Origin: Amphiscolops sp. MND2022 | Lineage: Eukaryota | Direction: 5' to 3' | Assembly: GCA_964187785.1 (NCBI GenBank) | Contig: OZ076415.1 | Coordinates: forward strand, 24,056,001 to 24,120,000 | DNA length: 64,000 bases | Part shown: positions 9,691 through 57,960 of the stretch, one piece after another | Position numbering within the stretch: the first letter of the stretch is position 1 | Layout of the letters: every line of letters begins with the position of its first letter | Position numbers and translations under genes: made by a program | Notes under the pieces: model-generated | The model's input: the letters and a program-made list of their open reading frames with translations, nothing else | The model's database searches: none | Told to the model about the DNA's origin: nothing

Positions 9691-9694
9691 GCCA

Positions 9695-11276: not shown

Positions 11277-11460
11277 TGTTAAAGGGTATAATTGCGAAGC
11301 AAGAAGAAGTGGAGAGTTATGAATGAATTTCCTACTAAACTCCAAGGCAACAGCAAATGATTGATCGTAATTTATCTGGCTCTAGCATTTTGGCAGGTGT
11401 TTGTAAATAGTAGTATTTCAGTTCATTGTTATTCTAACTGCTCTTTTCACATCTACTACA
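11277..11460 (-). repeat. 3' LTR of element B
   Basis: TGTT...TACA; matches 16384-16572. Confidence 0.95.
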
Positions 11461-11638
11461 CTCCCCGTTTTAATATAACACCTGGGGTTGTGCCTGGTTA
11501 TTTGACTTCAGTAGCATTAGTAGAATAACATACTACGATATGTTTTTGTCTCAACAAACGACTAAAATGTTCAGGTTAATGTTATTTATTTCAGATTACA
11601 TCACTTCTCAATGTTTTTTTTTCAGATGACTTATGTTT

Positions 11639-16370: not shown

Positions 16371-16383
16371 GCTCGCAGCGCCA

Positions 16384-16572
16384 TGTTAAAGGGTATAATT
16401 GCGAAGCAAGAAGAAGTGGAGAATTAAGAATGAATTTCGTACTAAACTCCATACAAAGGCAACAGCAAATGATTGATCGTAATTTATCTGGCTCTAGCAT
16501 TTTAGCAGGTGTTTGTAAATAGTAGTATTTCAGTTCATTGTTATTCTAACTGCTCTTTTCACATCTACTACA
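16384..16572 (-). repeat. 5' LTR of element B
   Basis: Matches 11277-11460; adjacent to the PBS. Confidence 0.95.
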
Positions 16573-19994: not shown

Positions 19995-20736
19995 GGTTTA
20001 GTATCATTTCACCCCACGTTCATTTCACCCCATATCATTTCACCCTATGTCATTTCACCCCACATTCATTTCACCCCACATTCATTTCACCCCAGGTTCA
20101 CTTCACCCCAGATTCATTTCACCCCACGTTCATTTCACCCCACGTTCATTTCACCCCACATTTAAATTATCAAATGCGTCTCAGATTAATTACTGAAGCC
20201 GCCCAATTTCAATCTTAGCGCTAATAGAAAAGGGTCTTGAATCTAATTACCAATTAGATAAGTAAACGATGCTTTCTATGTGAACCACAAATTCGAAACC
20301 GAATAGTTTCATTTATCGGAATTGTAATACTTTTGAAAAAGGCGCTGAAAAAAAATTTCTTCTGTCAATCAAAATTTACAATTATGGATGTTGCGAATCT
20401 TCAGCGAAAAATTTCTTATTCGGTGTTTCTACGACAAAAAAATCCTACAGATCAGAAACTGACAATCAAATCAAAGCTGACTCAAAGACAGTAGGCATCA
20501 AAGTTTAATTGCTAATTGGTTAATTAAGGCGAGACGCTTTTGTATAATTACAATATGGTGTGAAGTGAAAATGAGGTGAAATGAACGTGGGGTGAAATGA
20601 TTGTGGGGTGAAATGATTGTGGGGTGAAATGAATGTGGGGTGAAATGAATATGGGGTGAAATGAACGTGGGGTGAAATGAATGTGGGGTGAAGTGATATG
20701 GGGTGAAATGATTTTGGGGTGAAATGAACGCACACC
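19995..20736. mobile_element. Foldback element with 15-bp tandem-repeat TIRs (TTCATTTCACCCCAC)n and 8-bp TSD
   Basis: About 10-11 units at 20003-20160 and an inverted array at 20557-20730; GG...CC ends; TSD CTCCAAAC at 19987-19994 and 20737-20744. Inserted in an ACAAG repeat that starts at 19871. Confidence 0.88.
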
Positions 20737-25032: not shown

Positions 25033-28000
25033 CTGGTTACAGAGAAAGACAATAAGCAGGATAGGAGTCAAACATGTCCTCAACTTTTTTCTATGTATTA
25101 GTGCTGTTATACAGCTCATCTGTCTTAACCTCTACCGAATTTCGGTCAACCCTACCAGAAAGGAGTTGATAAAAAAACTTGAATGAAAACTCCATGTTAA
25201 TTTTTGAAGTATAGTTTTGATACAATCCCGTTACATAAAAAAGACTTGTTGCAGTTTGCTTCTAATGCGAAGCATTAATGTATGATTGACACAGTTAGGA
25301 TCGTTACAAACAATCAGAGCGAGGCAGAACACGACGAGAACGTCTAAAGTCGGCGCTTTATCTAGGGCTCAAAAAGCGCAAAACATTTTTTTTTGGAAAA
25401 AAACTTGAAATTTTCGAACACTTTTCTCTTTCGGAAAATGTCACAGAGTGCCGAAAAATGTAAAACGGGGAACCTTTTTGATTTATAAACATGCATTCTG
25501 TTGGAAAACAACAAAAAACTCAAAGGGGGACCCTTTGGGACATTAAAAAAAATTTTCAAAAAAAGTAGCACAGTGCCGAAAAATTTTGAAAGGTGTGACC
25601 CTTAAGTCTCGGCCGGTTCTGTAGGTTACAATAAAAATGGACTAACTGGAAGAAGGGACCCTTTGCACTATCCTAAATGCGCTGCCAGTATTTCGTTCGT
25701 CGCTTCGAGTCCGTCTTTAAAAAAAACGAGTGACTGTAATAGTAGGGATCTTTTATTAACAAAAGCGCCGACTAAAAATTTCCGCACCGAACCTAGAACA
25801 AGACAGATGTTGGAAAGATTCCGAAAGTTCACAAAACGCAAAAAAACTGGATATAACAACTGTTTAAATAGATGACGTCTCGGAAACCGGTGAACTGGAA
25901 AAAACAAGCATTTTAAGAACACTGTTTTCGTGCAGTGTGACTTGTTCTACCAAATAATGAGAACCAAACACAAAACGGAACCCGTCAGTATTTGACAGGC
26001 TTTCCGGCAGAACAGAACGTAGACGAAACACCTGAAGAGTTCTGGCGATGACTGAATGAAATCGAGAAAAAATGTAACTTTGATACAATGTCTGCAGAAG
26101 AAGTAATAATTACGTGACGGCAATTCCCAATAAAAAACCACGAGACAAAACTATGATGGAAAAACGTTGAACATGAAATAGAAACGTGGTTGATTAGTTG
26201 GTAAGAACACCTACGAAACGAAAAACAAAAGGAATACAAAACCGAAAGCGCCAGTCTCAGCGGGAGAAAAGCACGTAGTGGAAAACAGAACCGATACAAT
26301 GAAAACTCAATTCGGGAGAAGAGAACTTTTGGTAACTGATCATGGTGGTTTTGTAACGATCCAAACTGTACAATCATACGTTAATGCTTCGCATTAGAAG
26401 CAAACTGCAACAAATGCAGAGTGGCAAGCCACAACGCAAAAGCTTGCAGCACAGAAATCAACAACAACTATACATGTAGAAAACAAATCGAAGGAGAACT
26501 GAATGATACGAAAAGATCATCAAAGGAGTAAGACGAAAGCAAACATCACATGTAAGAAATAAATACCGGCGAAGAAAAGAACAAACACCAGATGGAAATT
26601 ATCATGCCACAAAAAATCGATATAACGGAAATGAATGGTGTGGAGTGGATGGAAGCTTCCAATTCCACGAACAGAAACACATAGAGGACTGAAAACAACC
26701 AATCAGAAGAAGAGAAAGTTTTAAAAAAAATTTCCAGATCTATTCCAGGACAACATTAAAAAAATACCGAAAAAAATAACCATCCCAAGCTGGGACGTTA
26801 CCTGCTTAAACAGAAACTTGATTCGTAGCAATACATCAACAACAAGCTCTGGGACGGGATAACGAGAAGTAATTACAGCCCAACATTTGAATATGACAAA
26901 TGACGTTGACAAAGACGGTTTTGTGTCTCAGGTGGTAATCACAGTAGACAGCGTGATAATAGCTCTGGACCCACGGAAATTGAAAGAGAGCTCTATGGAA
27001 AGGAAATCCAATACGCCAAATATAAGGGACTAGCGAACAATATTTCGGTTAAAATCACCCCTGCTGACAAGTACATCCATTTCTTTGAAAAATTGACTTG
27101 GATTACCCATAAGGACAAGTGAAATTATCCTAAGAAACAAGCCGACAATGTGTGTATGCACTGACCGGGGGTACATTCAGCGAGTACCCGAGGTACAAAA
27201 AAGGGTTCTTCGGACTTCAAATTTACCAACAATGTTTCCACAAAAACATGAACAAACACTCGAATACTGAACCCCTGCCTGTCTAGACGATATATCTATG
27301 GTAATCCGTGGAATCAACAGAAGCACGCGACAACGGTTTTTCAATTTTCCACGTAATCCTAACAATGGCATATATAGAGCAGGTTGGAACAAAATCCGAA
27401 ACTTTCATGAATCAAGCAAAGTGGCTGGGACTTCTACGAAGAAAATATCAACCCGATGCTTTCGGAACGAGCGGATCGGCGTAAAAGATCACTCAATCTT
27501 AGTGAACCATGAAAATAACCATATAAAACAAATTTTCACTAAAAGACCATGTCTAGCACACTAGACACAATCGAAAGAAAACATGGTAACTACCGATGAT
27601 AGCACAACCGAAACGGAAAAACACTTTGACAAAAACAAGATGACGGAGTTATAAAACCAATTGCATCCGAAAGTAGACGTTTGAACGACACTGAAAGAAC
27701 TATATGTACATTTGAAACATCTGGAGAGAACTATTCAATCGATGAATTGGAACAATTAGCAGTTGTATCTGGAGTACCAAAAATTCCGATTTCTTTTCAA
27801 CGGGAAAAAATTACCTAAAAACGGGACACCGAACTTTAGAGCCACTGACAAAAAGAAACCGATGTAAAAAACATAGGCGCGACGGCATGTCGCGCTTGGG
27901 CACGAGCAGAAACGTTCAATGGTCTGCAGAAGGTGCTAGAAAATGTGTATATCCCAGATTCCAAAACCTAGTGAACTTATCTAGTCTCAGATCAAGAAAA

Positions 28001-29745
28001 TTTAGATGAAAGAACTAAAAAGAAAGGTGAGAAATTGAAGTTTGAGAAAAATGAAAATTGTAATTTTAGCAGAAAAACGCAGGCGTCATACTTGATGACG
28101 GAAAGTTTGATAGTACAAGAACTAGCCTACATCTTTGCATAACTCTGTGAGGGAAAATGGTTTTCGTATCTACTTTCACTTCTGAGAAAAATCAGTTACA
28201 ATTTGGGAAAAAATGGAAATTTTTCGAATTTTTTCTTCTTCCATTTATTTGCCCAATAATACCAGAGCGAGAAAAAGTCGACGTCATTTTTACCTTTACA
28301 CATAGCCTACTGAACCCTCGTACAAATTACGAAACCATGGACTCCGTATTCGTTCTCGGTCCTGATATACAGGATACAGATATACAAGCTCGAGTAAAAA
28401 AGAAATGAGAATTTTTTTCAAAAAAATCAAGTATTTTTTAGCAGAAAAACGAAGGCGTCATACTTGATGATGAAAACTTGATTAGTACAAAAAAGCCCAC
28501 ATCCTTGCTATTTGTCTTGAGGAAGAATGGTTTCTCTATCTGGTCTCGGTTTTGAGAAATAAGGGAAGAAAGATGAAACACTCTAAAAAATTTGCGTTTT
28601 TTCAAAACTTTTTTCAAAAAAAACCAGGAAGCCGAATTCTTTTTGAAAAATTTCTTCAACGAAAAGGTAGCCAAGGATTCTACCCAACTTTTGGCTAGGA
28701 CAAAGGTTTTTCGTATCTCTTTTCAGTTCTGAGGAAAATCCATTACAAGTTATGAAAAAATGGGAAATTTTTCGAATTTTTTCTTCATCCCTTTATTTGC
28801 CCAAAAAAACCGGAGCAAAAAATTTTGACGTCATTATTGGTTTTAAACGCAGCCTACTGAGCCCTAGTACAAATTACGAAACCATGGACTGCGTATTTGT
28901 TCTCGGTCTTGAGATATAGGGGCTCAAGTATAAAATAAATAGGAAAATTTTTCAAAAAAAAACAAGTATTTTTAGCAGAAAAACGAACGCGTCATACGTG
29001 ATGACGGAAACTATGTTGGTACAAAACCTAACTTACATCCTTGCTGTTTATCTTGAGGGAGAATGGTTTCTGTATCTTTCGTCAGTTTTGAGAAATATGA
29101 GCTACAAATGAAAAAAAATTTTCGAAATTTTTTTAAATCCCTTTTTCTGCCCAAAAAGCGAAGTCGAAAAAAATTTTTTGACGCCATTTTTAGGTGAAAA
29201 TGTAATCTATGAAACGCTTGTATATTATACGAAACCATGAACTCTGTATCTGGTCTCGGTTCTGAGAAATAGGGGATGGAAGATGAAAAACAGTCAAAAA
29301 TAGCGTTTTTTTTTCAAAATTTCTTTTCAAAAAAAACCATAAAGCCGAATTTTTCTTGCAAATTGTTTTAACGCAATTGTAGCCGAGGATCCTGCGCAAC
29401 TTTTAGCTAGGATAAAGGTTTTTCGTATCTCTTTTCAGTTCTGAGAAAAATCAGTTACAAATTTTGAAAAAATGGGAAATTTTTGAAATTTCTTCTTCAT
29501 CCCTTTATTTGCCCAGAAAAACCAGAGCGAAAAAAATTCGACGTCATTCACTGCTTTAAACGCAGACTACTGAGCCCTAGAACAAATTATGAAACCATGG
29601 ACTGCGTATTTGTTCTCGGTCTTGAGATATAGGGGCTCAAGTATAAAATAATTAGGAAAATTTTTCAAAAAAAAATAAGTATTTTTAGCAGAAAAACGAA
29701 CGCGTCATACGTGATGACGGAAACTTTGTTGGTACAACAACTAGC

Positions 29746-30255
29746 GGGAACAAGACGTTTCGGCACAAGACGTTTCGGCAACAAGATGGCGGAAGACGTT
29801 TCGGCAACAAAATGTTGCCGAAACGTCTTTCACCTGCTGTGAAGACGTTTCGGCACCAAAGACGTTTCGGCAACAAGAAGAATAATCTGTAGTTTTCTTT
29901 AGTATGAAACGTGCCCCATATATGTCCCCATTTCCTCTAGTGCCCCGCGGCCCCTTGGGGCCGCTTATATTCCCATCTTGCTAAGCGAGGTCGAACAGGA
30001 GCAAAGACCTAGCGGAAACGGAGATCGCGAAGCGATCGTAGTGGGAGCTGGTCTTTGCGACGGTGAGGGCGAGCGTGCATACACCGAATATGCCCCCACA
30101 TTAGAAGGGGAAAGTACTGAAAATTTGTTGCCGAAACGTCTTTCACCTGCTGTGAAGACTTTTCGGCACCAAAGACGTTTCGGCAACAAAAAGTTGCCGA
30201 AACGTCTTCCGCCATCTTGTTGCCGAAACGTCTTGTGCCGAAACGTCCGGAACCC
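29746..30255. mobile_element. Foldback element with (GACGTTTCGGCA..)n tandem TIRs and 8-bp TSD
   Basis: GGG...CCC ends; TSD CAACTAGC at 29738-29745 and 30256-30263. The uninterrupted host sequence is visible at ~29015-29045. Confidence 0.85.
29907..30120 (-). mobile_element. ~200-bp hairpin+CTAG element (Helitron-like non-autonomous, tentative), copy 1 of 5
   Basis: Perfect 8-bp stem GCGGCCCC-TT-GGGGCCGC (29947-29964) 6 nt from CTAG (29937-29940). Other copies at 45365-45546, 46795-46989, 47408-47620 and split 48280-48358/49824-49948. Confidence 0.65.
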
Positions 30256-32811
30256 CAACTAGCTTACATCCTTGCTGTTTGTCTTGAGGGGGAATGGTTT
30301 CTGTATCTTTCGTCAGTTTGGAGAAATATGAGCTACAAATGAGAAAAAATTTTTCGACATTTTTTTTCATCCCTTTTTTTGCCCAAAAAACCAAGTGTGA
30401 AAAAAATTTTGACGCCATTTTTGAGCGAAAATGCAGCCTATGAAACGCTTGTAAATAACACGGAACCATGGACCCTGTATTTGGTCCTGGTTCTGAGAAA
30501 TGGGGGATCAAACATAAAAAACAGTCAAAAATAGCGTTTTTTCAAAACTTTTTTAAAAAAACCATGAAGCCGATTTTTTTTCGAAAATTTTTTTCGGCGA
30601 AAATGTAGCCCAGGAACCTGCGCAACTTTTAGTGGAAACATGGTGTCCGTATCTGTTATGGGTTTTAAGAAATTTGCCTCTTTTAAGAAAACGTCACCAT
30701 ATGGGCAATCTCGCTCCGCTCGTGCCCCAAACACTAAAGTTCGAGACTAATCCGGTGGCTCGACCAGTTGACACACTTCAATATCGAAGGAAAACACAAT
30801 GTTTGAAGTTTATTGATTCCCCCGCTGAAAACCTCATCGAGACGGGAAGCTGCGACGAAAGACAATTTTCATGAAGATAACGTAATCAAACTAACAATCG
30901 AACAAGGGAAATTAAAAATTAAACTCGAAACGGCTTTCGCGGACTAATCACAAAACAGCAAAGGCAAATGCGGTGCAAGAAAGAGTACCTCCGAACCACA
31001 AACTGGGCAAGAAACAATTACACTAGAATACAATAAACAAGAACTGAAACGGCGCGAACAAAGACAACAAACAAACGACATGTGTCGCGGAAGTCCAAAG
31101 CCAACTACCACGTAAAAATACGTAAGAAATCCAAGTAAAACACACAAACGAAAAAAAAATGAATATAAAAGCTACTGACACGAATTGAAAAACATTTATA
31201 ATTGGGGTCCAACCTGGAAAAACATCGACATTATCCGTCAACGCAGCCTAGAAAGCCGAAGATTAGTGAAACAAAAGCCCGCTCCATCCAACCCAGACAC
31301 CTTGATACGCCTGACATGGCCCGCAAACGCAGAGAACAGTGTTTACGACATCCCTGCTAGACAAAGACAGTCGATGCAAGACTGCCAAAACTAATACAAG
31401 GCTACTAAAACAAGCGACACCACTAGAAGGTCACTATCGAGAAGCCGATGAAGAAGAGTCCGGAAGAAAGACAAGTTGAGCCTGATCCGGCTGATACAGA
31501 AGAAGACATTGTCTTGCTCCAAGGAGGGAGCTCACTCATCGTAGAATGGAACAAATTCATACTGAAGGGACAAAAATCAGTCTCTCTAATCAAATTAACC
31601 AGTTCTCTGAGAGAGTGAAGAAAATCGAAGATAATTTCAAGAAAGCAGGATTTGAGTTACGATGGTCCTTAAAGAGCCTCATATCCAAAACTGCAATCGA
31701 GCTAGAACTCACACGAGTCAGGCGTAGCGTGAGACGAGAGGAAAAGAGATGACCCCAGAAGGGTAGAAGCCTGTTATCGAGAAAGACTCAATCCGGTGGA
31801 ATTTAGTAATTGTAACTGACAAAACGTTGGTCCCGTTCGCGGTTCCTGGATATACTACATTTAGGTCACGCCGGTTCGACAAAGTTGACAGTGGCAGAAA
31901 TTGTCTTCAAGCTGGAGGTCAAAGAAATAGTAAAAGACTGTACAGCATGTCTCGCAACATGTAATTTTTTACAAATCAATATCCGAACAAACATTATCGA
32001 GGGCTAACAAGTTGGCTGAACATGCAATACATATTGATTTTTACTATGAAACTTCACATCAAAAATGGACACAGAAATACTTATCACAAAAAAGTGGGGC
32101 CTCACAGAAAATTTTGATTTAGACAAACGAGGGTCGTTCATTTTAGAAATGTAAAAAATGAACCCAACAATAGTGGTCAAACACTGGTCACTCTCAATGC
32201 ACATGAGAAACAGTACTGCGGAAAGAGCAATCCAAACACTGAAGATTCAATGCTAGTGAACATGGGAGACGGAAATTACCTAACCGGAAGTTTTTACAAA
32301 CACTTCCGAACCAGCCAATATTGTTGATGGTGGTAAAATGAAATTATCACATTGTTCAGAAATATCAATTTCAAGGTCAAACAAGCGAATTTTTATAATC
32401 TCTAAGGGCTATGTTGCGGAAGCAGACTTAGGTAATTAAGTGGTCTTGGCTAGCACCAAAGCAGATTCGGTTAGCTACCCCGTTAGACATGAACCATACC
32501 GACACTGAGGAAACGACCACGACGAAAATGGAACGCTGGTAGAAACCGGATATCATGTCTATTATACCTCGGAACAAAACAGACGATGCGCGTCAATTCG
32601 GACGAACGCGGAAAACGAGGTTTTACAGATCTATACAGACAGTGAGAATCCACAGGGTGGGACTCCTGAACCTAATATACAGCGATTAAGCCGAAGTGCC
32701 AAAAGTACGATCAGGCACGGTAGCATATCTTAGTTAGGCTTAAATCGGATACGATCTCTTATGTCAAAATTGGCCCAATGTGGGACAAAACAAAACATGT
32801 AAAAAAGTTTC

Positions 32812-35300: not shown

Positions 35301-36192
35301 AAGGGCTATGAAAACATCTTGATAAGATTTAGAAGTATTTTGGAACAAAGTACATTACCAATTCCAGAAAAATGAATACCATCTCTGGAGGCACTTTTTT
35401 GCTGGTATACAATTTACTGCGGAAATATTATTTGGTCCAAGGTGTAATGTATTGTACAAATGTATTTTGTGTAGATTGAAAGTTTCACACTTCATATGAC
35501 ATACGTTGCTATTAAAAGAGAGGTCTCACACGGGAGAGATGTTTTTCGGGGCTATTCGGCCTGATTTAGTATGGGATCAAGTCAGTCAGGATGCGGTCGT
35601 TCTCTTTGAACAAAGCAAGGGGATGCAATGATCGTTGAAACCGGCGACTAAAAAAATTTTTTGCAGATCAAGTCATGCGTATATCGCTACAACCAATGTC
35701 AAATCCCCGATGGTTGCTCCGGCATGAGTTGCCTAAATTGTCTCAAATTGTAGATACTTGGTCGCGGATGTTCTAAAAACCAATTGTCTCTCGTTCCAAA
35801 TAAAAGTCCCCGCTGTGAAATGTCAGTGCATTTTCCGCTCACCTACAGCTGAGGTGGTGTGTCTTCGTGAGTACCATGGAAGTCCAGAATCAGCGCGCAT
35901 ATGATATGAAACAGCAAAGATTGTGATTGAGAAGGAGAAACATACTATATAATAAATTTAAAACATCAAATACGGTTTGCGTTCTCATGTATCATTGACA
36001 TGTTATCCCATCGTCGTCCTCCTCAGTGTCGGTAGGTTCTTGTTTGACATGATATTTAACTGATCTGCTTTGGTGCTCGCCGTGACCACACAATTAATTT
36101 TCCCCTTCTGCACCACAGTGCTTAGAGATTATAATGTTTTGCTTGTTTGATACTGAAATGGATATTTCAGAACAATGTGATAAATATATATT

Positions 36193-36945
36193 TGTAACGT
36201 CCGGCTAGCGACGCACATCTAGGAAGAGGGACAATGCCTAGGATGCTTAAACAGGAGACCGTTGTCTTACTACATACCTAGACACTAGTTTTTGATCCCA
36301 AAATGGTCTCCAAGGGGGACTTTTCTAACGTCTAAGGAGGCTCCTCTAGTTAGAGCTCCGAGGCGACGTGCCGGCACTCTCAAAGTCCGGACACGCCCCA
36401 CAAGCCTGTAAAAACAAATCCTAAGGTTTTTAGCGCGTTCCTGCCATCTCCTACATACTTCCGAGGTCCAAAAAGGTGTCTAGCTGAAATACATTATATT
36501 GGTGAATAAGGACTAAAATGAGGCCCTAGTAGGTCAAACATTATCCAAATACGCTATAAACAGTCAAAGTAGGTGGGGATAGGCCCCAATAAAGTATACA
36601 GTTACAGTTCGGTGGCGATCATCGGCTTCCTGCCTCTGGCATCATTCCTCATCTTCGGGGCACAATGGTCTCATTTGGCACTTTTCTGCCAAAACCCTGT
36701 CTTTTTGCTGTCAGATGGCCGAATTCCTGATTCTCACGCCTTCTGGGTGATGACATCTCGGACATTCTCGTTCCTGGGTGGTGGGTTGGGTCTTTCTGGG
36801 CGTGTTTTGCCTTTTTTTTGCTTCCTCTACGGTTTTCGTACCTGCCGGGTCGGCCATCTTGAATGTGCTTGTTTGATGTCGCACATTTCGAATTTTTGAT
36901 CGAAATTTTCAAAAACTTCTGCAACGCCGACTGCCGGACGTTACA
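36193..36945 (-). repeat. 3' LTR of the LARD-like element
   Basis: Near-identical to 40566-41318; adjacent to the PPT. Confidence 0.95.
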
Positions 36946-39900
36946 TCCTCCCCGGGCCGTAGTTTGTCGTCCTCGACAAACGAGAGAGGACGTTCACATC
37001 TTGGTTGCCACCATCCAGTGATCCAGTGATACTGTTGTAACATGGTACTTCAGGAATCTAAATGGAAGTCGTTGCCCAAAAACACGTTATTGCCCAAAAA
37101 CATGAGTTTTTGCCAGCCTAGCAGGTTTCCTTGGATTCCACACCAACAACGGGTTCTTGCACTGGAAAAATATTAGCAACTTTAGACACTTAGCCTTATA
37201 TTCAAAACAAATTCAAACTTTTAATTTCGCACCAAGATTTCAAAATTTCTAGCACCTTATTGCATCTGCATAAAAAGCACTCATCACAATAGGTTTGGCA
37301 CTGACCTGGGGTCCGCCTGATAGGTTAGGTTTTATAAAAAGCACGATAGCACTTGAAAAGCGAAAAATAAAAGTAACAGCTGTGGTCTTGCAAAGTTCAT
37401 GGCCAACAGAAACTGCACAATAACTAGCACCAATGGTGAAACAGGCCTCAAAAAATCAAAAATATCACCAAAAGTGAGGAACTATTCAATCTATTGTGTC
37501 AGCAGTGTACGCCCAGTTAAAGTTATTGCCTAGGTAGTACAAGCACCAGTGTATATGCAAGAGATGGAAACAAACTACTTCTCAAGAGGGGACAATGTCA
37601 CTAACGATGATAGAGCAGAACCAATAAAAGTCAAAAATCAGGCATGATAGATCATGAAAACAGTCTTCGGCATTAAAAACAAGTTCCAGAGCAATCATTC
37701 GGGTTCTAAAAGCACGGCCGCTGGCCAAGCAATTCTCAGAGCTTCGAAGCTCTAGGTGTTTCATCAAGCTTGGTGTTGACTCCTCTCGGGTGAGTACGGG
37801 TACTCCCCGGGCCAATCTCTGGTCCGGTGTTTTCACATCGACATGGTTCACGCAACTGTGGTACCGAGCACCAAAGTACGCCATAGGCATGAATTGAGCA
37901 ACGAACACTGATTATTTGAGAAGTCTGCTTGGCTACAGATGTTAGATTGTCTGAAATGTCCGCTTGTCACTCATGTTGCCATGTTTCTGGAGAGCATAAG
38001 TGATAACAAAAATGTAATTAGGGACTACGGGTAGACCTTGGGGGTGAGTAGGAGGAGAGACACTGAGTTTGAAGTGGTTTTTTGCCTTACGATCGTAGTA
38101 CGATTAGAAAAAGCGTTCTTTTTCCACTATGGCAGTCATCAGTGTACTTGTTGTTCTGTTTTGAGACGCACTGCGTACAAAGTCTAAACTTCTAAAAGTG
38201 CCTATAAACGCGCTCCAGCACCTGTAGGGCCCATGGGGCACTGAGTATGCGTAATCTCAATGAACAGATTGCACTCAAGTGACTTTGATAGCAGCCGGGA
38301 GGCGAATTTCCATTTTCGGTTTTTCACCTCCATGTCTCATAGATCGGTTTTCTCAGAGACCCGAGATCTTAGGGTCAGCTTAGCACTAATCAAAGTGATT
38401 CAAGAAGACGTCCTGAGGGCGCCAGATATGCTAATGGGCTCGCCTTGGCCCTCACTGGCACGTACATTGACAAAAACTATGTGATTTTTTGCAAAAATGA
38501 CCAAAATCAACAATTTTTTCGTCAACATGCACCTCCGGGGAAGGTGAAAATCACTTGTAGCGCTGCTAGCGACTTGAAAATTTCACACCGTCTAATACAC
38601 TGGTTGAATCGTGGGGAATGAACCTCCGATTGCGTCAAAATTGACCCTGTGGGTGTCAGGGCCACTTAACAATGTTCACTGAAAATTTGACTATGTCGTG
38701 AAATTCACAAAAAGTGGTCAGACTCGCCTTCGAGGCGTCCCAGCCACCTGAAATTTTGCATGCGAGCGTAACTTTTGCCTACGTAACAGAAAAACAGAGG
38801 GGCGAGGTGCCTTGATCAACATCTGGCGATATGAAGTGACAAAACCTTGATGTACCAGAGGTACCACTTTTTCGGGTCAAAAATCGCAAAAATGTCAATT
38901 TCTCAGCTTTGGCTAGTAGCCAGCTGCTCAAATTGCACAAATCGTCGTGATCCAGTGCCGTGTGCACGAAAATGCAAGAATTTTAGTGTTGGGGTACCTG
39001 CGAGGTATTGCACTATGCTCAACTAAAATTCAATTTTTTCGACATTTTCGGATCATTTTTGAGCAAAACTGCGGCTAAGATTTCTCAATCACTAGTAATG
39101 GTAGCGCTATGAAAATTACACCACCAACGTAACTTTTTATGGTCTCCACGATGGTGCAATCCGTTTTGGGCTACTCCTGCTAGGAGAGATTTCGACCTGT
39201 ACTGGAAGCACTACTCTGGTGTTCCGAAAATGTCACAAAAATAACACGTTTTTGGCTATTTCTCGGCAACCACTGGTTGGAATCACTCGCGGTTTTCGGC
39301 GTTGGTAGTCTAGTACTCTCTACTAACAGAAAGTAGGCGAGCGAAACCTGGTAGGTTCCAGCTAGGGTCTCTCAATATTGGTTTTAGGTCACACCTTGGA
39401 CACTCTGGGAACACCTATGAAAAACACTTATTTTCCCTAGGAACTTGTTATTCTTCGGTTCCCAGAGGTCAACGGTGGTTTCAACGGTACTGTAGGAAGG
39501 TGTAACTGCTTTATTCAGGGGAGTGGGGTTCTTTCAATTATTATTTTTGATGTTATAGCTCTCAGGTCTATGGGGTCCTCTACTCAGGTCTATTTTAATG
39601 AAAGAAAAGTGATGTTAAAACTTCAATTTATATTGGGGATGTTCAAAAACCGTCTTGGTAGTAGTATTGCGTACTACCAAGCACAACAACAAAAATTTTG
39701 GGCCTTTCAAGAGGCTTGGGAGCAAACACCCAAGGCTTCGCCCTCGTCAAAATTGGTCAAAATGGCCAATTTTGCCTATTTTTGAACAAAAATTGCTGAA
39801 ATTTTCAGGTTTTCTAGAAAAACAGCCCAACAAAATTATTTGTTCTCGACCTGGTAGGTCCGACAGAACGTTTTTCAGGTATTCCCTCAGGCCGTAGACA

Positions 39901-40565
39901 GTTCTATAAAATTTTGGCTCTCAAAACGGGAAATTTCGATATTTGAGCTGTTTTTACTGTCTTTTTTGGCGTTTTCGAGCTCAAGTTCTTGAAATAACTG
40001 ATGTAAATACCCTGTGGGTATTATTCACAGTTAATTTATGCAAAAACAGGCCTGGGAATACTAATTTGGGGCTAGAAAACGTAAGGGGAACGAAATAACC
40101 CAGCTATCTTCGGTGAATTGGCATCAAGTGGGGAGGAAGAGGCTATGACGTGAAGCACCTGCAGCCCTGCACTCAGCTAGTTCGGGTCTTCACCAATCGT
40201 CCTCGCAGTCCCTGTACATTGCTAATTAGCTGAAAAGAAGCTGGAAAACCCGTTAAAACACGTTCCGGATAAGCCGGAATAGCTTTTTTAATGAGTACAG
40301 ATAAGGCACAAGGGGGTACACTGTTTCAAACTGTCTTTTTCAGGCTGGGAACCTCGGAAACATGCAGGAAACGCAGGAAAAACACTAATACGAGGCCCAA
40401 AGGGCTAGAACAAAGCAATAAAAACAATCTAGGACTCTCCTAAAAGCTTCTCCTAGATCCGGACCTTTCAGGGCCGGAAAGCAGGAGTTGCTCCTCGCAG
40501 GACGCGGTAAGGAAAATTATCCTTGAAAAATATCCCTCTGTGGTCGCCATAAAAACTATTCCAGA

Positions 40566-41318
40566 TGTAACGTCCGGCTAGCGACGCACATCTAGGAAGA
40601 GGGACAATGCCTAGGATGCTTAAACAGGAGACCGTTGTCTTACTACATACCTAGACACTAGTTTTTGATCCCAAAATGGTCTCCAAGGGGGACTTTTCTA
40701 ACGTCTAAGGAGGCTCCTCTAGTTAGAGCTCCGAGGCGACGTGCCGGCACTCTCAAAGTCCGGACACGCCCCACAAGCCTGTAAAAACAAATCCTAAGGT
40801 TTTTAGCGCGTTCCTGCCATCTCCTACATACTTCCGAGGTCCAAAAAGGTGTCTAGCTGAAATACATTATATTGGTGAATAAGGACTAAAATGAGGCCCT
40901 AGTAGGTCAAACATTATCCAAATACGCTATAAACAGTCAAAGTAGGTGGGGATAGGCCCCAATAAAGTATACAGTTACAGTTCGGTGGCGATCATCGGCT
41001 TCCTGCCTCTGGCATCATTCCTCATCTTCGGGGCACAATGGTCTCATTTGGCACTTTTCTGCCAAAACCCTGTCTTTTTGCTGTCAGATGGCCGAATTCC
41101 TGATTCTCACGCCTTCTGGGTGATGACATCTCGGACATTTTCGTTCCTGGGTGGTGGGTTGGGTCTTTCTGGGCGTGTTTTGCCTTTTTTTTGCTTCCTC
41201 TACGGTTTTCGTACCTGCCGGGTCGGCCATCTTGAATGTGCTTGTTTGATGTCGCACATTTCGAATTTTTGATCGAAATTTTCAAAAACTTCTGCAACGC
41301 CGACTGCCGGACGTTACA
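40566..41318 (-). repeat. 5' LTR of the LARD-like element
   Basis: Near-identical to 36193-36945; PBS 16 nt inside. Confidence 0.95.
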
Positions 41319-44300
41319 ATTACGACCTTAAACAAAATTGGCTGATTCGTGGTTTGGTTCTCCATCGTTACGTATTTCGATTGGTGTAGTTTTTTGTGCA
41401 GTGTTTCTAGTGAATCACAGTACTCGAAGTGTTTGATAAAAACTTCCGGTAAGGCCATTTCCGTTTCCCATGTTCATTAACTTTGAAATCTTCAAAGTTT
41501 AGATTGCTGTTTCTACCGTACCGTTTCTCATCTGCATTGGGAGTGACCAGTGTTTGACCTCTATTGTTCGGTTGATTTTTAAACTCTTCTTAAATGAACG
41601 CCTTCGTTTGTCTATTATATTATGTTCCGTAAGGCCCCACAGTTAGGGGTATTTGTTAAGAAAATAACATTTTCCGTGGATTTCGACCTTTTAACTTCTT
41701 TCAATGTCGCGACAGTTTCTGAAACATTTTATACTGATTAGTGTTTGTGTGTCCCGTTTTTTTGTTGTGAAGTTTCCTTGTAAAGTCAAGTTTTTGTATT
41801 TCCTGTTCACCTATATTTTAGTTCTCCGTAGTGTTGGTTCGGTGATTGGTTCGTAATTGTTTACCTGTTGCGATCATGCTGTACAGTTTATTATTATTTT
41901 TTCGAGACTTTTGTTGACCTCCAGCCTGCAGAAAAGTTTTGCCTTGATGATTGTCGTAACGGTGTGACCAAAATATAGTATATCTTCGAAGCGTCTTCTG
42001 AGATCAAACGGGACAAACGTTTTGTCACTGGCAATTTCTAAACTCCACCGGATTGGCATTTCTCGAATGCAGGCTTCTACTCTTCTGGGGTCATCTCGTC
42101 ACATGCTCTGCCTGACTCGTGTGAGGTCTGGCACGATTGCAAATTGCGATATGGCGCTCTTTAGGACCACCGTAAATCGTGTCCGGTTTTTCTGAGAAAA
42201 TTTCCGATATTCTTGTTAGTACAGAACTTGCCAAAAATTAAGTTAATTTGAATAGAGTGTAATTTTGCCCTTCAGTATGAGTTTCTTCCATTATACGTTG
42301 GAAGAGCTCTCTTCCCGCAGCAAAACAATGTCTTCTTCTGTATCAGCCGGATCAGGTTCAACTTGACTCTCTTCCGAGCTCTTCTTCATCGGCTTCTCGA
42401 TGGTGACCCGAACGACAGTTGTGTCGCTTATTTTAGTAGCCTTGCATCAGTTATGCCAATCTCGCATCAACTGCTAAACGTTCGAACCCATCGATTGAAT
42501 AGATCTTTTCAGATGTTTCAGATATACATATAGTTCTTTCAGTATCATTCGGATATCTACTTTCGGAAACAAATGAGTTGGTAACTTCGTCATCTTGTTT
42601 TTGTCAAAATGTTTTTACGAGAAAACGTTTGTCCCCTGCTGTCGTTGATTCCACGGATTACAATGGATAGATCGTCTAGACATGCAGTGGTTCAGGATTC
42701 GAGTGTTCGTTCATGTTTTTGTGCAAACAATGTAGGTAATTTTGCAAGTCCGAAGAACCCTTTTTTGTACCACTGGTACTCGCTGAATGTACCCCTGGTC
42801 AGTGCATACACACATTGTCGGCTTGTTTCTTAGGATAATTTCACTTGTCCGTATGGGTAATCCAAGTCAATTTTTGAAACATGTGGATGTACTGTTCAAC
42901 AGGGGTTGTTTTTTACCGAAATCGGGTTGGCAACTCCCCCATATTCGGCATATAAGGTTTCGTTTTTGTATAGCTGTCATTCAATATCCTTGAGTTCTAC
43001 TTTCACAGAGTGATATTTTCACGTGTGTGGTATTTTCACGTGAGTGCAATTTTCACTGATTCAACGCTGTTAAGAGTGATTACCATCTGAGACAAGAAAC
43101 AGTCTTCGTCAACGTCATTTATCATATTCAAATTCAAATGCTGGGCTATTATAACTTCTCTAAATACCGTCCCAGAACTTCTTGTAAATGTAGTTGTACC
43201 AATCTAGTATGGTTTTAGCAAGTAACGTCCCAGCTTGAGCTTGATAATCCTTTCGGTATCCATTATTGTATCGATGTCCTCGAATAGGTCTGGAAAATTA
43301 CTGAAGACGATCTTTTTTTCTTGTTGGACCCTTTTTAGCCGTTCATGTGCCTCCGTTTGTGAGTTTGAAAATTTCCATCCATGCCACAACAGGTAGTGAC
43401 CTGTTATCGCTTTTCTTTGTGTTATGATAGTTTTCAATAGTGTTTTTTCTTCGCTTGTATTTATTTCTTTTATGTGATGTTTGCATTTGTCTGACTCATC
43501 TGATGATTCTTTCGGTTCATTCATTTCTTCTTTTCTTAGTTTTCATACTGTTCCATTGTTGTTGAACCATCTTCTGTGGCCTGCATATCTGCATTTGTTC
43601 TAGTTTTCTTCCAGTGAAAAGCTTTGGTACATCGGTGTGCAATTCGGATCGTTACAAAACCTCCATGGTCAGTTATCCAAAAATTTTGTTCTTCCGAATT
43701 GTTTTTTTTGTTGTAACGATTCTGTTTTTCATTTTTTCATCGATTGTAATCAAGGCTTCCTGATTTGGTTTCCTCTCGTTTTTCTTTCTGTGTTTACTCG
43801 TCAGGTGTTCTAGTCAACAAGTTCGATTGTCTTCTTCAGTTCAAACGATTTTTCTATAATTTTTAGGTCGTGGTTTTCATTGGTATTTGCTGTCATTTAC
43901 GTAATCAGTAACTTTTCATCAGAGATTCAAATAAAATTACTTTTTTCATTTCATTCCGTCTTCAGGTGTTTCGTCCACGTCCTGTTTTGCCCAAAAATTC
44001 TCTTCTCTTACGGTAAGTATATCGTTTTGGAAGGTTGCAATGGTTTTCGTTTTCTGTTTGGCTCTCGTTATCTGATAGATTCTTTCGGGTTCTACTGAAC
44101 AAATAAAACGTTCTTAGAATCCTTTTTTTCCATACCAACAGTTTTCGGTACGTCTTCCCATTCATTACTGGTTATAGCTATTTTATTTTGCGTTTTATGA
44201 ACTGCCGGAATGTTTCCAACCACTGTCTTGTTGTAAGTACAGAGTTCACCTCCAACAGTTTGCCCCAGGTTCGATACGGCTTTTTTCTGCCATTCTCCGG

Positions 44301-50189: not shown

Positions 50190-52057
50190 CAGGGGTTTGC
50201 AATAATTAATTGGTCTTCCAATAATTGCAATAATAATTGCCAATATTATTGATTGGGCACTTTTCCAATAACCAATTAATTGGAAATCGTTTTGCCAATT
50301 ATTGGTTTCATTGGTTTTCAAATTGAAAGCTCTTTTTCAGGTTTGAAATGAGTTCGAACAGAGATTTTAAAACCATATGCAAGAAGTATTTCACACCAAT
50401 GGAAAATGACATTTTCAAATGCAAATGTGGCAAAATTTTGAAGCAAAAAAAAGGTACCGGTTGGTCTAATTTGATGGTGCATATTCGAACACAACACGAA
50501 ACAACTCCATCCGGTCCCCAAAATACTTTGGACTTTATGCAATGTAAGAAGTCTCAAACCATCCATGATTGGATCGAATGGATATGCATGGAGCTTCGAC
50601 CTTTTAGCTTTGTGGAAAGCGAGTATGTGAAGAAAAATGTCAAGCTTGAAGCAATTTCAAAGAATACTTTGCAAAAGTATATGCATCTCCTCACCAAGAA
50701 AGTGGAACAAGAAATCATCAAAGCAATGCCAGAAAAAATTGCTTTGATAGTTGATGGATGGACATCTGGTAGCACCCACTACTTGGGCGTAATGGCATCG
50801 TTCTGCGACATGGATCAAAATGTTGAAGTTCCGTTGTTAGCTTTTTCGCCGCTCATAGATGAGACTTCACAAAGTGCTGCTCAGCAATATGTATTTTTGG
50901 AGATGACACTCAGCCAGTATGGCAAGTCGATGGAAGACAATGTGGTTGCTTTAATCGCTGATAATTGCGAGACCAATAAGGCTCTCGCTGATATCTGCAA
51001 CGTTCCACTAGTTGGATGTCACTCTCACCGTCTGGCACTAGCAGTGAAAGAATACTTGACCAACAAAGACGAACTCATTCAAAAAGTGAACACTTTAATG
51101 GGAAAGTTGAAGGCACCGAAGACTGCCGCAGAGCTGAGAAATTTCACGAATTTAAAACCAGTGCAGTATTGTGTCACGCGATGGTTGAGTGTTATGCAAA
51201 TGCTAAAGCGCTTCACTGAAATAAAGGATACGATAAGAAAAATACCTGCAGTCATTGACTTCTTGCTATCACCTAAAGAAGAACTCGAAATTGAGCAACT
51301 GGTGAAGATTCTGGAACCAATGAAATCAGTCACTATTGCTCTGCAAAGAAGTGATATGGATATGGACTCTGCTCGGACCTTGTTCGACGAGTTATTGAAA
51401 ACTGTCGAGAATTTTGATCGGAACAAGAAATATATCCATAAGAATTGTGCCATTGCCAAAAACAATTCGTTTGAAAACGCTATTGTTAAGCTACAGTCTG
51501 GTGATGAATGTGCTCTCAACGTAAATGAAAATCTAGCGTGCAAAAAATTGAGAAGAACTTCTGATATCGAGTGCGAATTTCCACAGACGGATGACTTCGC
51601 GGGAAACGTTTTGGCGAAAAAGAAGAAAGATACCAAACAGATGAAATACATTCCCTGCTCATTCATTTTGCCGACATCTAATCATTTGGAACGGTTTTTT
51701 AGCGCAGCTGGTTTCGCTTCGAATGACTACCGAAAATCAATTTTGCCGATGAATTTAGAAGAGCAACTGTTCCTTCGATTTAACAAAAAGCACTGGGATT
51801 TGAATTTAGTAAATCAAATTGTGAGTGCCTCTGAGTGAGATATTCATTTGAGTGTGCATGCCGCTGAGTGAGCTGTTTTATAATGCGTCTTTTCGATGAT
51901 TTTTGTAATTTAATCACTCTGAAACAGCTGTTTTTTAAAGTGCCCAATTATTGCACTTATTGCAATAATTTATTGGTCAAGGGTCCAATAATCAATTAAT
52001 TGGTTTTCAGAAGTTTTGGGACCAATAATTATTGCAATTATTTATTGCAAAGCCCTG
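50190..52057 (+). mobile_element. Intact, apparently autonomous hAT DNA transposon (1868 bp)
   Basis: 16-bp TIRs CAGGG(G/C)TTTGCAATAA with 1 mismatch; perfect TSD CATCTGAT (50182-50189, 52058-52065); repeated CCAATAATT subterminal motifs; single ORF. Confidence 0.96.
50348..51838 (+). CDS. hAT-family transposase, 496 aa, intronless
   Basis: BED-like finger (CKCG...NLMVHIRTQH), catalytic D in VDGWTS, D in IADNCETN, CxxH (CHSH), TRW motif, and E in SNHLERFFSAAG. Confidence 0.95.
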   Translation: MSSNRDFKTICKKYFTPMENDIFKCKCGKILKQKKGTGWSNLMVHIRTQHETTPSGPQNTLDFMQCKKSQTIHDWIEWICMELRPFSFVESEYVKKNVKLEAISKNTLQKYMHLLTKKVEQEIIKAMPEKIALIVDGWTSGSTHYLGVMASFCDMDQNVEVPLLAFSPLIDETSQSAAQQYVFLEMTLSQYGKSMEDNVVALIADNCETNKALADICNVPLVGCHSHRLALAVKEYLTNKDELIQKVNTLMGKLKAPKTAAELRNFTNLKPVQYCVTRWLSVMQMLKRFTEIKDTIRKIPAVIDFLLSPKEELEIEQLVKILEPMKSVTIALQRSDMDMDSARTLFDELLKTVENFDRNKKYIHKNCAIAKNNSFENAIVKLQSGDECALNVNENLACKKLRRTSDIECEFPQTDDFAGNVLAKKKKDTKQMKYIPCSFILPTSNHLERFFSAAGFASNDYRKSILPMNLEEQLFLRFNKKHWDLNLVNQIVSASE

Positions 52058-52745: not shown

Positions 52746-52820
52746 TTGAGATTGGGATAATAAGTTTGGGAAGGGTTATACATTTGTTGGATATCGAAGT
52801 TTGCTTTTAGATAAATAAAA

Positions 52821-54008
52821 ATGCCGGAAGCATCCTTTTCACTCAATAACTTGCTGGATCTTCAAAATAAAATCAAGAGAGACCCTACTGGATATCACGA
52901 TGACTTTGTTCAAGCTCATTTATATTTCAAAACCTGCATTGACTTATTTGAGCTTGAGCCAGCTCAGCCACACAAGCATTTACAACAGCTCATATTGTTC
53001 ATGGCATATATAACACCTTGTTACCGGCAGGAGCTGAGTCAACTTTCGTCTTTATTCCGTGGAATTCTCCTACGTCATAAAAACAATTTACATCCACATC
53101 TTCGATTATCGTTTTGTAAAGCTCTGACTTTCTACAGGAATCGTGATATAGTCACTCCAGTTTTTATTCTCGAAACCTTTTTCGAGCTGTGCTCCTGTCA
53201 GGATAAACAACTGCGTAGTTTCATCAAGAACTTTATGAAGAACGACTTGCGGAAGATAAATGAGAAAAATTACGACAAAAAGTTAAACTCGCAATTACAA
53301 ATTCTTGTTTTTACAAAGCTCAAAGTTTCCAATGTCAGCATAGCAAAAGTAGCATTGATGCTTCTGTGTGATATGTTTAGAAAACGAATATGGACTGATT
53401 CGAAAGTAGTTAATGCTATTTCGAATTGTCTTTTCTCAACTCAACCTGTAATTCTTGTGAAAGCCCTGGCATTTTTCGTAAAGCGAGATGAATCAGGTGA
53501 AATAGAAATTGCCGACAGCGACAGTGAAAAATCCGATGAGGGAGAAAGGAAAAATAAGTACGAGCAACAACTGAAGAGTTTACTGCAAGCTAAGGTCGTC
53601 ACAAAGAAAACAAAACGGAAAGCAAGGAAACTCGATAGAGCTAAAAAGCTGCTCAAGAAAGAACAAAAAGAAGAGAAAATTGTCGATAACCTGTCTGCTC
53701 TTGATCTGATTTATGATGCACAGTCCTTGGGGGAACGCCTTCTGAAATATTTATCTAAGTACAACGGCAAATTACATGTAAAACTCATGATGATGGATTT
53801 AATATCTCGTTTGATTGGCGTTCATAAATTGACCATCCTGAATTTTTTCCCATTTATTCAGAGATACTTGCACGTCAATCAACGCGAGGTTACTAAAGTG
53901 CTCCTGTTTGCAGCTCAAGCTGTCCATGATGAGATTCCAGACGATGTTATTGAGAAGCTTGTTTTATTCATTTGTTACAATTTCATCTCCGATCAGAATG
54001 CTGACGAG
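52821..54008 (+). CDS. SDAD1: SDA1 homolog (60S ribosome biogenesis/export factor), exon 1 (396 codons)
   Basis: NLLDLQNKIKRDPTGYHDDF, LHPHLRLSFCKAL...RNRD, FFELCSCQDKQLR, KRIWTDSKVVNAI, NFFPFIQRYL...QREVTKVL..AAQAVH are typical SDA1 motifs. Donor GAG|GTTTGT. Confidence 0.93.
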
Positions 54009-54237
54009 GTTTGTAAATTATGCTCTCGTCGAAAACTGTTAAACGGTCTGCAATTGTTTAACAGTATGTCGTCAAACGAGTTGCGGTGGCTTAAATATGT
54101 TGGGCAAGCAAGAATCAAATGAAGTACTTTAATTTTTGATTTCAAGGACATTTGTTGTTTCTTATTGAAGTGCGTTTTTGGACTTGGATTCAAATGATAG
54201 CTCTTTCTTTTCATCTTCGAAACTTTGAGTGTTTTAG

Positions 54238-55374
54238 GTGATGGCAGTTGGTTTGAACACAGTCCGTGAAATTATCCACAGACATCCGAAAGCTCTGGCG
54301 TGTAATCCTGATCTTGTTGACGACCTTGTGGAATACAAGAAACATAGAAACCGCGGTGTAGTAACAGCCGCTCGATCCGTCATTCAAACCTTGAAGGAAG
54401 TCAACCCTCAGTTGCTGAAGAGCAAACATCGAGGCAAACCCACTGCACATTTGACGGAAGTCTTACAAGGTACTCAAAGCATAATTCCAGGAGCTGAAGT
54501 TTTGAATACAGAGGAGAACCAGCAATCAGGAGAATCTGCATCTGAGAGTGAAGACGAAGCTGGACCTTCACAAGCGAAACGTCGTAAAACTGATAACAAC
54601 GACTTGCAAGAAATTGAAGAGTTAGATGCGGGAAGCGAAGATAGTGATGAATATGAAGATGTCGACGATGATGAAGAAGAGGTAGATTCCGATGACGAGG
54701 AAGAAAGTAATTCAGAAGATGAAGATCTCTCAATAGGATCTGAATCCAAAACAGAAAATAATGAGGAAGAAAAGCTTACAAATCAAACTCAATCTTCAAC
54801 TGCGGGTACAATAGAAAGCTCTAAAACAAGTAAAGTTGTAACCACTAATGAGTTTCTAGCCTCTCGAATTCTTACTGATGAAGACTTCAAGAAAATCAAA
54901 ATCGAGAACTTGCGCAAAAAGATTGAATCTACAAGTCGGGATCGCAAACGCAAGCTTGCTGCTACGAAATTGAATGACTGGTCGAAGCGAAAGAAGAAAA
55001 AGGTCAAAGAAATAGATCCTAATGACCTTGAGGAGATGCCACAAGAAATCGATTCTGAAGACCTCGAGAATGAATCGAGTGATGGCGAAATCAATAATTT
55101 GCCGAGGTTTGAATCAATTGCGAAAGTAAACATTAGAAAGAGACACGACAAAGAATCCAAAATGGCGACCATGTTAGCCGGCCGAGAAGACAGAGAAAAG
55201 TTTGGGAGACCCAACAAGAGACAGAACCCAATGGCCAGCACTACAAATGCAGAGAAGAGCAAAAAGAAGAACTTCATCATGATGCGACAGAAACGCAAGA
55301 CGCAAAAGACCAAGTCTTTCAAAGAAAGACAGCTGCAATTGAAAAACTCTTTAAAGCGAAGATATCCCAAATAG
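54238..55374 (+). CDS. SDAD1: SDA1 homolog exon 2 (378 aa + stop); total 774 aa, one 229-bp intron (54009-54237)
   Basis: Acceptor GTTTTAG|GTG joins NADE|VMAVGLNTVREI (cf. human NSGEVMTVGINAIKEI). KHRGKPT, an acidic tract, SRILTDEDFKKI, AGREDREKFG and STTNAEKSKKKNFIMMR follow. Confidence 0.93.
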   Translation: MMAVGLNTVREIIHRHPKALACNPDLVDDLVEYKKHRNRGVVTAARSVIQTLKEVNPQLLKSKHRGKPTAHLTEVLQGTQSIIPGAEVLNTEENQQSGESASESEDEAGPSQAKRRKTDNNDLQEIEELDAGSEDSDEYEDVDDDEEEVDSDDEEESNSEDEDLSIGSESKTENNEEEKLTNQTQSSTAGTIESSKTSKVVTTNEFLASRILTDEDFKKIKIENLRKKIESTSRDRKRKLAATKLNDWSKRKKKKVKEIDPNDLEEMPQEIDSEDLENESSDGEINNLPRFESIAKVNIRKRHDKESKMATMLAGREDREKFGRPNKRQNPMASTTNAEKSKKKNFIMMRQKRKTQKTKSFKERQLQLKNSLKRRYPK

Positions 55375-57135: not shown

Positions 57136-57339
57136 AATACGTTATTTTCCGCCCATATTTCATATGGGAAAGGAAAATATTTAAATCAAACGGTTTTTTT
57201 TTTACAAAATTTGCCGAGCACGAATTTTGTATTCACCTTAAAGGGCGTTACCCATAGAATTCAACTCACGTAAATTTAGCTTCGTGCGATATGTATTTGT
57301 AGAGATTTTTGAACTTTTTTGGGAATGACGAAAATGACC

Positions 57340-57960
57340 CGAAAATGACAAAAATTCAAAAATTTCCCAATTTTCAAAGTTTTTATGCATCTTTGTCATT
57401 TTTTCGATAGACATCGTGGATAAGTATGTTAAAAACGTTCAAAGAGGCACGAATTCATTGTCCAATTAAAATCTATGAAAAGATAAATGCGGTTTTATGA
57501 ATGAAAATTACCCCAAAATGACAAATTCCAAAACTTTTCAATTTTTAACGTTTTTATGCAATTTTTGTCAAATTTTCGATAGACTTCGTCGATTAGAATG
57601 TTGAAAATGCTCAACATGGCAGGAATTCGTTGTCCAGTATGACAAAAAACCCAAAGTTTACCAAGTTTTTATGCAATTTTTCTCAAATTTTCGACAGACT
57701 TCGTAGATTGGAATGTTGAAAAGAGTCAACAAGGAACGAGTTTGTTGTCCAGTAGTCTTTTATGAAGAGATGATTGCGGATTTCAAGAAAAGTATCTCAA
57801 ATTGGCACCGAAATAGACAAAAAACCAACATTTTCAAACTTTCAAAGTTTTTATGCATTTTTTGTCAAATTTATGACAAACAGAAAAAACCCAAATTTTC
57901 AATGTTTTTATTCAATTTTTGTCAATTTATCGATAGACTTCGTGGACCAGAATGGTAAAA
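57340..57960. repeat. Degenerate tandem minisatellite (~120-180-bp units)
   Basis: AAAGTTTTTATGCA..TTT.GTCAAATTTTCGATAGACTTCGT recurs at ~57375, 57545, 57660 and 57845/57920. Confidence 0.8.

Follow-up and report, generated by a model that had tools for sequence, protein, structure and literature searches.

Large retrotransposon derivatives (LARDs) are long terminal repeat (LTR) elements with a non-coding interior, and a conserved secondary structure of the interior RNA is part of their description. A LARD and its autonomous partner, Dasheng and RIRE2 of rice, are described in PMC4558846, and a LARD-like element has been noted earlier in an animal, as one copy in a chaetognath (PMC2997562). 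We analysed 64,000 nucleotides of DNA from Amphiscolops sp. MND2022 (the window; GenBank assembly GCA_964187785.1, contig OZ076415.1, positions 24,056,001 to 24,120,000, numbered from its first letter), which contains a LARD-like element at 36193-41318, called the parasite below. Like Dasheng, the parasite is non-coding, longer than 4 kb, equipped with LTRs, a primer-binding site (PBS) and a polypurine tract (PPT), present in many copies and extensively similar to an identified partner. Unlike Dasheng, it lives in an animal, makes a target-site duplication (TSD) of 3 bp, appears to recombine with several helper families and has an interior made up mostly of helper leader and a remnant of pol with a sequence like a central PPT.

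The helper lineage resembles Ty3/gypsy elements in its order of Gag, protease, reverse transcriptase (RT), RNase H and integrase (IN), its CCHC knuckle and D(35)E core, its TG..CA ends, tRNA priming and PPT. It departs from them in a TSD of 3 bp instead of 4-6 bp (a general rule, not a strict definition), in a PBS lying 15-16 nt from the LTR, and in its length of 19 kb with a 3.1-kb leader. Large gypsy elements with accessory domains are known from planarians (Burro, GYPSM1) and rotifers (Vesta, with a GDSL/SGNH ORF3), but these exceed 30 kb, and the helper has its own domain set, with a predicted TARG1/DarG-like macro fold after the integrase and an SGNH-like fold in ORF2 (PMC6431247, PMC5408684). 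In the ta-TRIM/lennie system of taeniid cestodes, also a non-autonomous LTR element of animals, a candidate helper was matched to it on the termini, the PBS and its distance, and the length of the TSD; those elements are 1 kb long, with a TSD of 4-5 bp and a 4-nt spacer, and have neither an intact helper nor a common interior (PMC4558846).

The element and its helper

The LTRs lie at 36193-36945 and 40566-41318, each 753 bp long, and differ at a single position (C at 36767, T at 41140), just as an earlier first-pass annotation of the window had described; the whole element measures 5126 bp. The LTR ends are TGTAAC..GTTACA, here and in every family read. The PPT (GGGGAGGA) adjoins position 36945 and the PBS (40532-40549) is found on the opposite side, which puts the element on the minus strand, with its 3' LTR at 36193-36945 and its 5' LTR at 40566-41318. 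The longest stop-free stretch of the interior is 114 codons, and an Rfam scan of the element gave no match at E<=1. With two LTRs, a PBS, a PPT and more than 4 kb, the parasite has the general build of a LARD, and it is LARD-like with an identified helper lineage.

The autonomous partner, which the first-pass annotation had proposed as unseen, was found in the same genome by following one unpaired LTR to a long coding element. Ten further copies of this family, family A, were read end to end. They are 19.1 kb long (one 20.0 kb), with LTRs of 709-713 bp carrying 0-3 differences, and have gag and pol in one frame, of about 3240 codons, and about 1400 codons in another; in four of the ten both frames are unbroken. 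LTRs measure 703-757 bp, the helper interior 17.7 kb and the helper leaders 3.1 kb. Gag of family A contains two CX2CX4HX4C knuckles, and the Pfam domains of gag-pol come in the order zf-CCHC, Asp_protease_2, RVT_1, RT_RNaseH, Integrase_H2C2 and rve. The closest solved structures are Ty3 RT (E 3e-73) and Ty3 IN (E 1e-28), and WRGPH of the helper aligns to YVGPF of Ty3, a GPY/F-like motif. The C-terminal end of pol (L035:8078-8620) is predicted to adopt a TARG1/DarG-like macro fold (Foldseek E 8.5e-6). Part of ORF2 (L035:3652-7860, about 1400 aa) may have an SGNH-like fold: nearly all top Foldseek rows of the model were SGNH/GDSL proteins, at E 0.005-0.09, with no match at E<=0.001; ESM Atlas gave scores below 0.9 only, and Pfam returned nothing meaningful for ORF2 and 15 relatives. 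Relatives of ORF2 at E<=0.001 number 371.

The parasite and family A have in common the termini, the R-U5 half of the LTR (90-97% identity; 36193 to about 36490 in the 3' LTR), the spacer and the PBS. About 90% identity extends over 2.05 kb of the leader, and a further 41 nt are shared at the PPT. The rest of the LTR beyond about 36490, apparently U3, is family-specific and 54-62% like the helpers. In the explanation that we prefer and consider about 80% probable, the parasite, a non-coding and multi-copy element, consists of end signals and leader taken from the 19-kb gypsy lineage and would be copied and inserted in trans by proteins of that lineage, whose integrase would cut the target with a stagger of 3 bp and remove 16 nt from the U5 end. 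As part of the same explanation, the family would be an old deletion derivative that has renewed its R-U5 and PBS-proximal leader by switching templates with the helpers of today, usually family A and occasionally B2.

Families B, B2, C and D belong to the lineage as well, next to family A and its variants (Av); E is a sister family, which has 63% amino acid identity over RT-IN and more than 150 matches in the genome. A P0071-type sister lineage was not found in this genome, and among 34 metagenome loci with relatives none was long enough to span both ends or gave an informative junction. The 3-bp TSD and the displaced PBS are known from this one genome only.

A displaced primer-binding site

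The PBS and PPT of the first-pass annotation are both present, yet it overlooked the two most unusual features of the element, the 3-bp TSD and the position of the PBS, which lies 16 nt inside the terminal CA of the LTR, beyond a spacer at 40550-40565. The PBS is complementary at 18 of 18 positions to the 3' end of tRNA-Arg(TCG) of the same genome, including CCA. This tRNA has 255 pattern matches in the genome; it fits the PBS of both A and E, and about 250 of its genes form a tandem array with a spacing of about 174 bp (G000:C9:57537000-57577000 and beyond; L085-L087). A TGG directly after the LTR was considered as the PBS and rejected, since families B-D have TAG in its place and the perfect complement of the tRNA is found 16 nt deeper in the element.

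The spacer measures 15 nt in E and 16 nt in all the other families (A, Av, B, B2, C, D). A different PBS, which we take to be of the Lys type, occupies the same position at 16 nt in B, B2, C and D, and E keeps the Arg site. Thus the length stays at 15-16 nt across a switch of primer, while the sequence of the spacer varies. A spacer of about 9 nt occurs in Tf1. The PBS of LTR elements usually lies 'immediately downstream' of the LTR, and ta-TRIM has its 4 nt (PMC4558846). Neither a gypsy element with a PBS displaced in this way nor a survey of long LTR-PBS spacers was found in our literature search, which was a narrow, exact-phrase one with Repbase Reports and subscription journals outside its scope.

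With the PBS 16 nt from CA, standard reverse transcription would give a cDNA carrying 16 bp beyond the CA of U5. The 16 spacer bases are absent from the host junctions, and almost every copy is joined exactly at CA. Together, the short TSD and the displaced PBS likely reflect an unusual insertion enzyme. The strongest competing explanation, a possible one though in our opinion the less probable, is that the spacer is removed without special integrase chemistry, by an early stop of plus-strand synthesis or by a host or RT nuclease, and is kept for a U5 hairpin that sets up priming. Pairing between spacer and U5 is predicted over 9 positions in all nine non-E sequences (in the parasite, the first part of the spacer and CA with 40587-40598), with one compensatory and three wobble changes, and would bury the CA; 91% of 90 cells were paired, against 27-57% in slid controls, in a test biased in favour of the stem by the derivation of the structure from the same sequences. 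Spacers longer than usual also have precedents in ta-TRIM and Tf1. However, the precision of the CA junctions fits cleavage by an integrase, and a length held at 15-16 nt while the sequence varies also argues against this explanation.

Origin of the interior

Interior sequence of foreign or host origin can be rejected for 2.7 of the 3.6 kb, which is helper-derived: 2.6 kb corresponds to helper leader and about 90 bp to a remnant of pol. The first 41 nt inside the 3' LTR (36946-36986, with the PPT GGCCCGGGGAGGA adjoining the LTR) are shared with family A at 40 of 41 positions. They are followed by about 800 bp (36990-37780) with at most a weak likeness to helper 3' untranslated regions (UTRs; z 3.5-4.7 in three of seven families, <=2.3 in four). 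The pol remnant, at 37784-37877, derives from the region behind the integrase and has a DNA identity of 67-74% to the helpers and 71% amino acid identity over 24 aa to P0033; it scored 32-38 bits, while the best of 30 shuffles reached 25. The first-pass annotation had seen no trace of gag or pol. It was right that the interior is non-coding, and as a whole the interior is not a decayed gag-pol, the remnant being the exception.

Inside the remnant, at 37803-37816, lies the 14-nt motif ATTGGCCCGGGGAG, an exact repeat of the PPT core. In six helper families aligned over 1350 nt, with 12% of third positions invariant elsewhere, no other stretch without a change is as long; all six families have the motif unchanged, and it is intact in 35 of 36 parasite copies. 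On this conservation the motif is a candidate central PPT, and plus-strand priming may start there.

Towards the PBS there follow an older part of the leader (37955-38513), 63-64% like families B2, C and D, and the part shared with family A (38514-40531), a 5' UTR of about 90% identity. The latter is depleted of ATG on the sense strand, as are the helper leaders (9-15 ATG against 37-48 expected); in the older part this depletion is lost (9 against 8.7 expected), which fits a long relaxation. A 10-bp AA/TT periodicity is pronounced in the leader (38514-40565, z 8.5) and not in the 800-bp 3' part (1.2) or pol (-0.6); a constraint at the DNA level is therefore as plausible as RNA structure. Similar-looking phased repeats occur in the window at 28000-30500 and 57300-57960.

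The leader of family A has a T-rich tract with AG, resembling a splice acceptor, about 50 nt upstream of the first gag ATG. The breakpoint between parasite and helper, at 38505-38515 of the window, reads AG/GT. Judged from such motifs, trans-splicing of the long helper leader is a possibility.

The leaders of the parasite copies are block mosaics, and most contain a block nearer to B2 or C than to A. In L019 one block is 96-98% like B2, and L070 has a helper-type 5' LTR. A chimaera of 21.8 kb (G000:C3:14179128-14200901; L029, L027, L028) contains three LTRs within one TAT duplication, in the order helper-type LTR, parasite interior, parasite-type LTR, five spacer bases, helper body and helper-type LTR, and its outer LTRs are 99.4% alike. 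Such an arrangement would be expected if minus-strand synthesis jumped to the RNA of the parasite from that of the helper, and together with the mosaic leaders it points to co-packaging of the two RNAs. The junction in the chimaera is 17 nt away from the site at which the parasite departs from the leader of family A, a possible hot spot of switching.

We also considered that the real parent or main mobiliser is another coding family, which has the U3 and 3' interior of the parasite. The U3 and 1.4 kb of the interior are far from every helper examined, leader blocks of the 5.47-kb variant of the parasite are at most 82% like any family examined, and of the 472 further 3' ends of the lineage in the genome just 100 were listed. 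On the other hand, 97 of these 100 belong to helper types A-D, all 40 best LTR matches that were traced proved to be parasite copies or the chimaera, and family A is the nearest match in R-U5, PBS, leader and PPT alike. Another parent is thus unlikely.

A target-site duplication of three base pairs

The parasite in the window is flanked by ATT at 36190-36192 and 41319-41321. As had been proposed, it is inserted in a decayed small gypsy element, which runs on the minus strand at 41322-44240, with RT traces at 42626-43134, and resumes to the left at about 36020-36189. An uninterrupted homologue of this host element, L109, aligns to both flanks, on the left over only about 150-170 bp, and the overlap at the empty site was 3 once the local alignments were extended to the junction. 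Empty-site homologues were available for five insertions, and an overlap of 3 was obtained in all five and in all 8 pairings.

We examined 41 parasite loci, picked as the best matches to the window copy, and 36 of them were scored by script. The flanks were equal over 3 bp in 35 of the 36 (2.8% in a control of mismatched pairs), over 4 bp in three (two T runs and a genuine case, L064) and over 6 bp in none. The five unscored loci gave one 3-bp match by eye, one mismatch (L071) and three clipped or tandem ends. Helper-type insertions had a 3-bp TSD in 34 of 38 cases, three more pairs being unscorable: 10/10 in family A (one clipped end), 9/9 scorable in B, 1/1 in B2, 3/4 in C, 1/1 in D, 2/2 in the A-variants and 7/10 in E (two with one mismatch, one lacking a duplication), and the chimaera likewise. 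An unambiguous 4-bp TSD was present in 2 of the 74 scored insertions (L064 and one copy of family C). Mis-set termini as the source of the short TSD were rejected, as the inner LTR borders have the same TG..CA and the empty sites overlap by 3.

The literature search described above, with its narrow scope, found no gypsy element with a 3-bp TSD; Troyka was the one LTR group for which it turned up such duplications. Plant elements, 13,566 in number, all had 4-6 bp, though the finder tool presupposes that length (PMC6317226). In the account of Kojima (PMC12440569), LTR elements have TSDs of 4-6 bp and TG..CA ends, except for Troyka, with 3 bp and CG..CG. Troyka elements, or Kuafuorterviruses (PMC12440569, PMC11673190), are of an aquatic-animal type and include non-autonomous members (PMC12440569), which, with the 3-bp TSD, speaks for a Troyka-type parasite. 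This identity is nevertheless highly improbable, and we reject it on termini, knuckle, GPY/F motif and size: Troyka LTRs measure 100-400 bp and the interior at most 7.7 kb, against 703-757 bp and 17.7 kb here; its knuckle is CX2CX8-10HX4C and it has no GPF/Y, in contrast to the CX2CX4HX4C, WRGPH and TG..CA of the helper, whose RT and IN are nearest to Ty3. The published description of Troyka sets the lineages apart, and the 3-bp stagger would be convergent.

Copy number and dispersal

The exact pattern of the parasite 3' junction occurs 294 times in the genome, which gives at least 294 copies. A search of the 1.07-Gb genome with the LTR returned 3472 candidates, and the 40 scored ones were 98-100% alike. 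The scored copies fall into two size classes, 5.1 kb (5.09-5.15 kb) and 5.47 kb (5.46-5.49 kb), plus one tandem, and the LTR pairs of 31 of the 35 single copies had 0-1 substitutions. It is clear that this is a conserved multi-copy family and not a set of one-off deletions. The insertion is young. The family is old, part of the interior being just 63-64% like the nearest helper examined and the U3 54-62%. The element is thus multi-copy, non-autonomous and recently inserted, as the first-pass annotation had suggested, and not the single-copy element or assembly artefact that it had named as ways of being wrong: the copies lie on at least 13 large contigs, dozens of them dispersed, each with its own flanks and its own TSD. 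For the same reason, and given that empty sites exist, spread by duplication at the DNA level, or an artefact of assembly, is practically excluded, even though some head-to-tail tandems share an LTR (L009, L074x).

Such tandems sharing one LTR were noted at L009, L074/L083, L099 and L124, in the parasite and families B and B2. At L074x one CAA duplication encloses two tandem units.

A proposed replication cycle

The following cycle is consistent with these results. Transcription of the parasite would start in its own U3 and follow the minus strand, a direction backed by the PBS and PPT and the ATG depletion. Its RNA may then be packaged together with helper RNA by way of the common 2-kb leader, as the mosaic leaders and the three-LTR chimaera suggest. 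Going by complementarity, tRNA-Arg(TCG) would prime at 40549 and leave 16 bp beyond CA at the U5 end of the cDNA. Plus-strand synthesis would start at the 3' PPT and probably also at its internal copy, given their conservation. Finally, the cDNA would be trimmed back to CA and joined with a 3-bp stagger; this is the outcome seen at the junctions, for which integrase is the presumed enzyme.

Several observations weigh against parts of the preferred explanation. Recombination in the genome, or read-through of a recombined locus, could also yield mosaics and a chimaera. The leader shows weak covariation, confined to a few patches: in an analysis of eight diverged leaders by z score and count of double-sided changes, 4 of 30 scorable 120-column windows had a mean z <= -2 (in the range of -2 to -3), with few such changes. 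The spacer-U5 stem contains one double-sided change only and is out of register in E, and the internal PPT copy was not seen in the stretch of family E examined. There are also exceptions to the 3-bp TSD, namely the two 4-bp cases, three imperfect or absent ones in E and the mismatch at L071. In addition, picking loci by best match overstates the youth of the family.

The novelty would seem to lie in a gypsy lineage that combines a 3-bp TSD with TG..CA ends and a PBS displaced by 15-16 nt; the type of the parasite is already known, and by analogy it probably works on its helper as Dasheng does on RIRE2. More tentatively, and at somewhat less than an even chance, we propose an undescribed lineage of giant gypsy elements, whose integrase would have acquired a 3-bp stagger independently of Troyka and would cut U5 at a distance of 15-16 nt from the end of the cDNA, where 0-3 nt is usual. 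The parasite would then be a minimal vector made by nature: it would mark out all the cis signals required (leader, displaced PBS, central PPT and PPT), and helper families that differ in their primers would package it.

A gypsy lineage with TG..CA ends and 3 bp breaks the rule, followed in a recent survey, by which a 3-bp TSD is tied to Troyka, other elements having 4-6 bp. It also adds an independent second instance in which to ask which features of integrase set the stagger. The fixed gap of 15-16 nt from the att end to the primer site predicts processing of the cDNA end. LTR finders that demand a TSD of 4-6 bp and a PBS adjacent to the LTR may mis-annotate this lineage, which probably has well over a thousand copies here. 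Few LARDs have an identified helper, and the present pair has left fossil chimaeras, which are relevant to the questions of co-packaging and template switching. The parasite also indicates that a signal like a central PPT can persist after the surrounding gene is lost; our search of the literature, within the limits given above, found no central PPT in a non-autonomous element.

Other features of the window

An inverted paralogue of the host gypsy is present in the window, 25791-32511 being 70-82% like 41426-44238. Two more gypsy elements of about 5.2 kb, with LTRs of about 117 bp, lie at 4478-9810 and 11344-16572. A 16-bp unit is arrayed at 20004-20159 and again, in inverted orientation and at a distance of about 400 bp, at 20552-20728; the pair resembles the termini of a foldback or MITE-type element. 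An unbroken frame of 503 aa at 50327-51838 presumably encodes a hAT-like transposase, and two long frames at 52815-55374 resemble what we take to be an SDA1-like gene.

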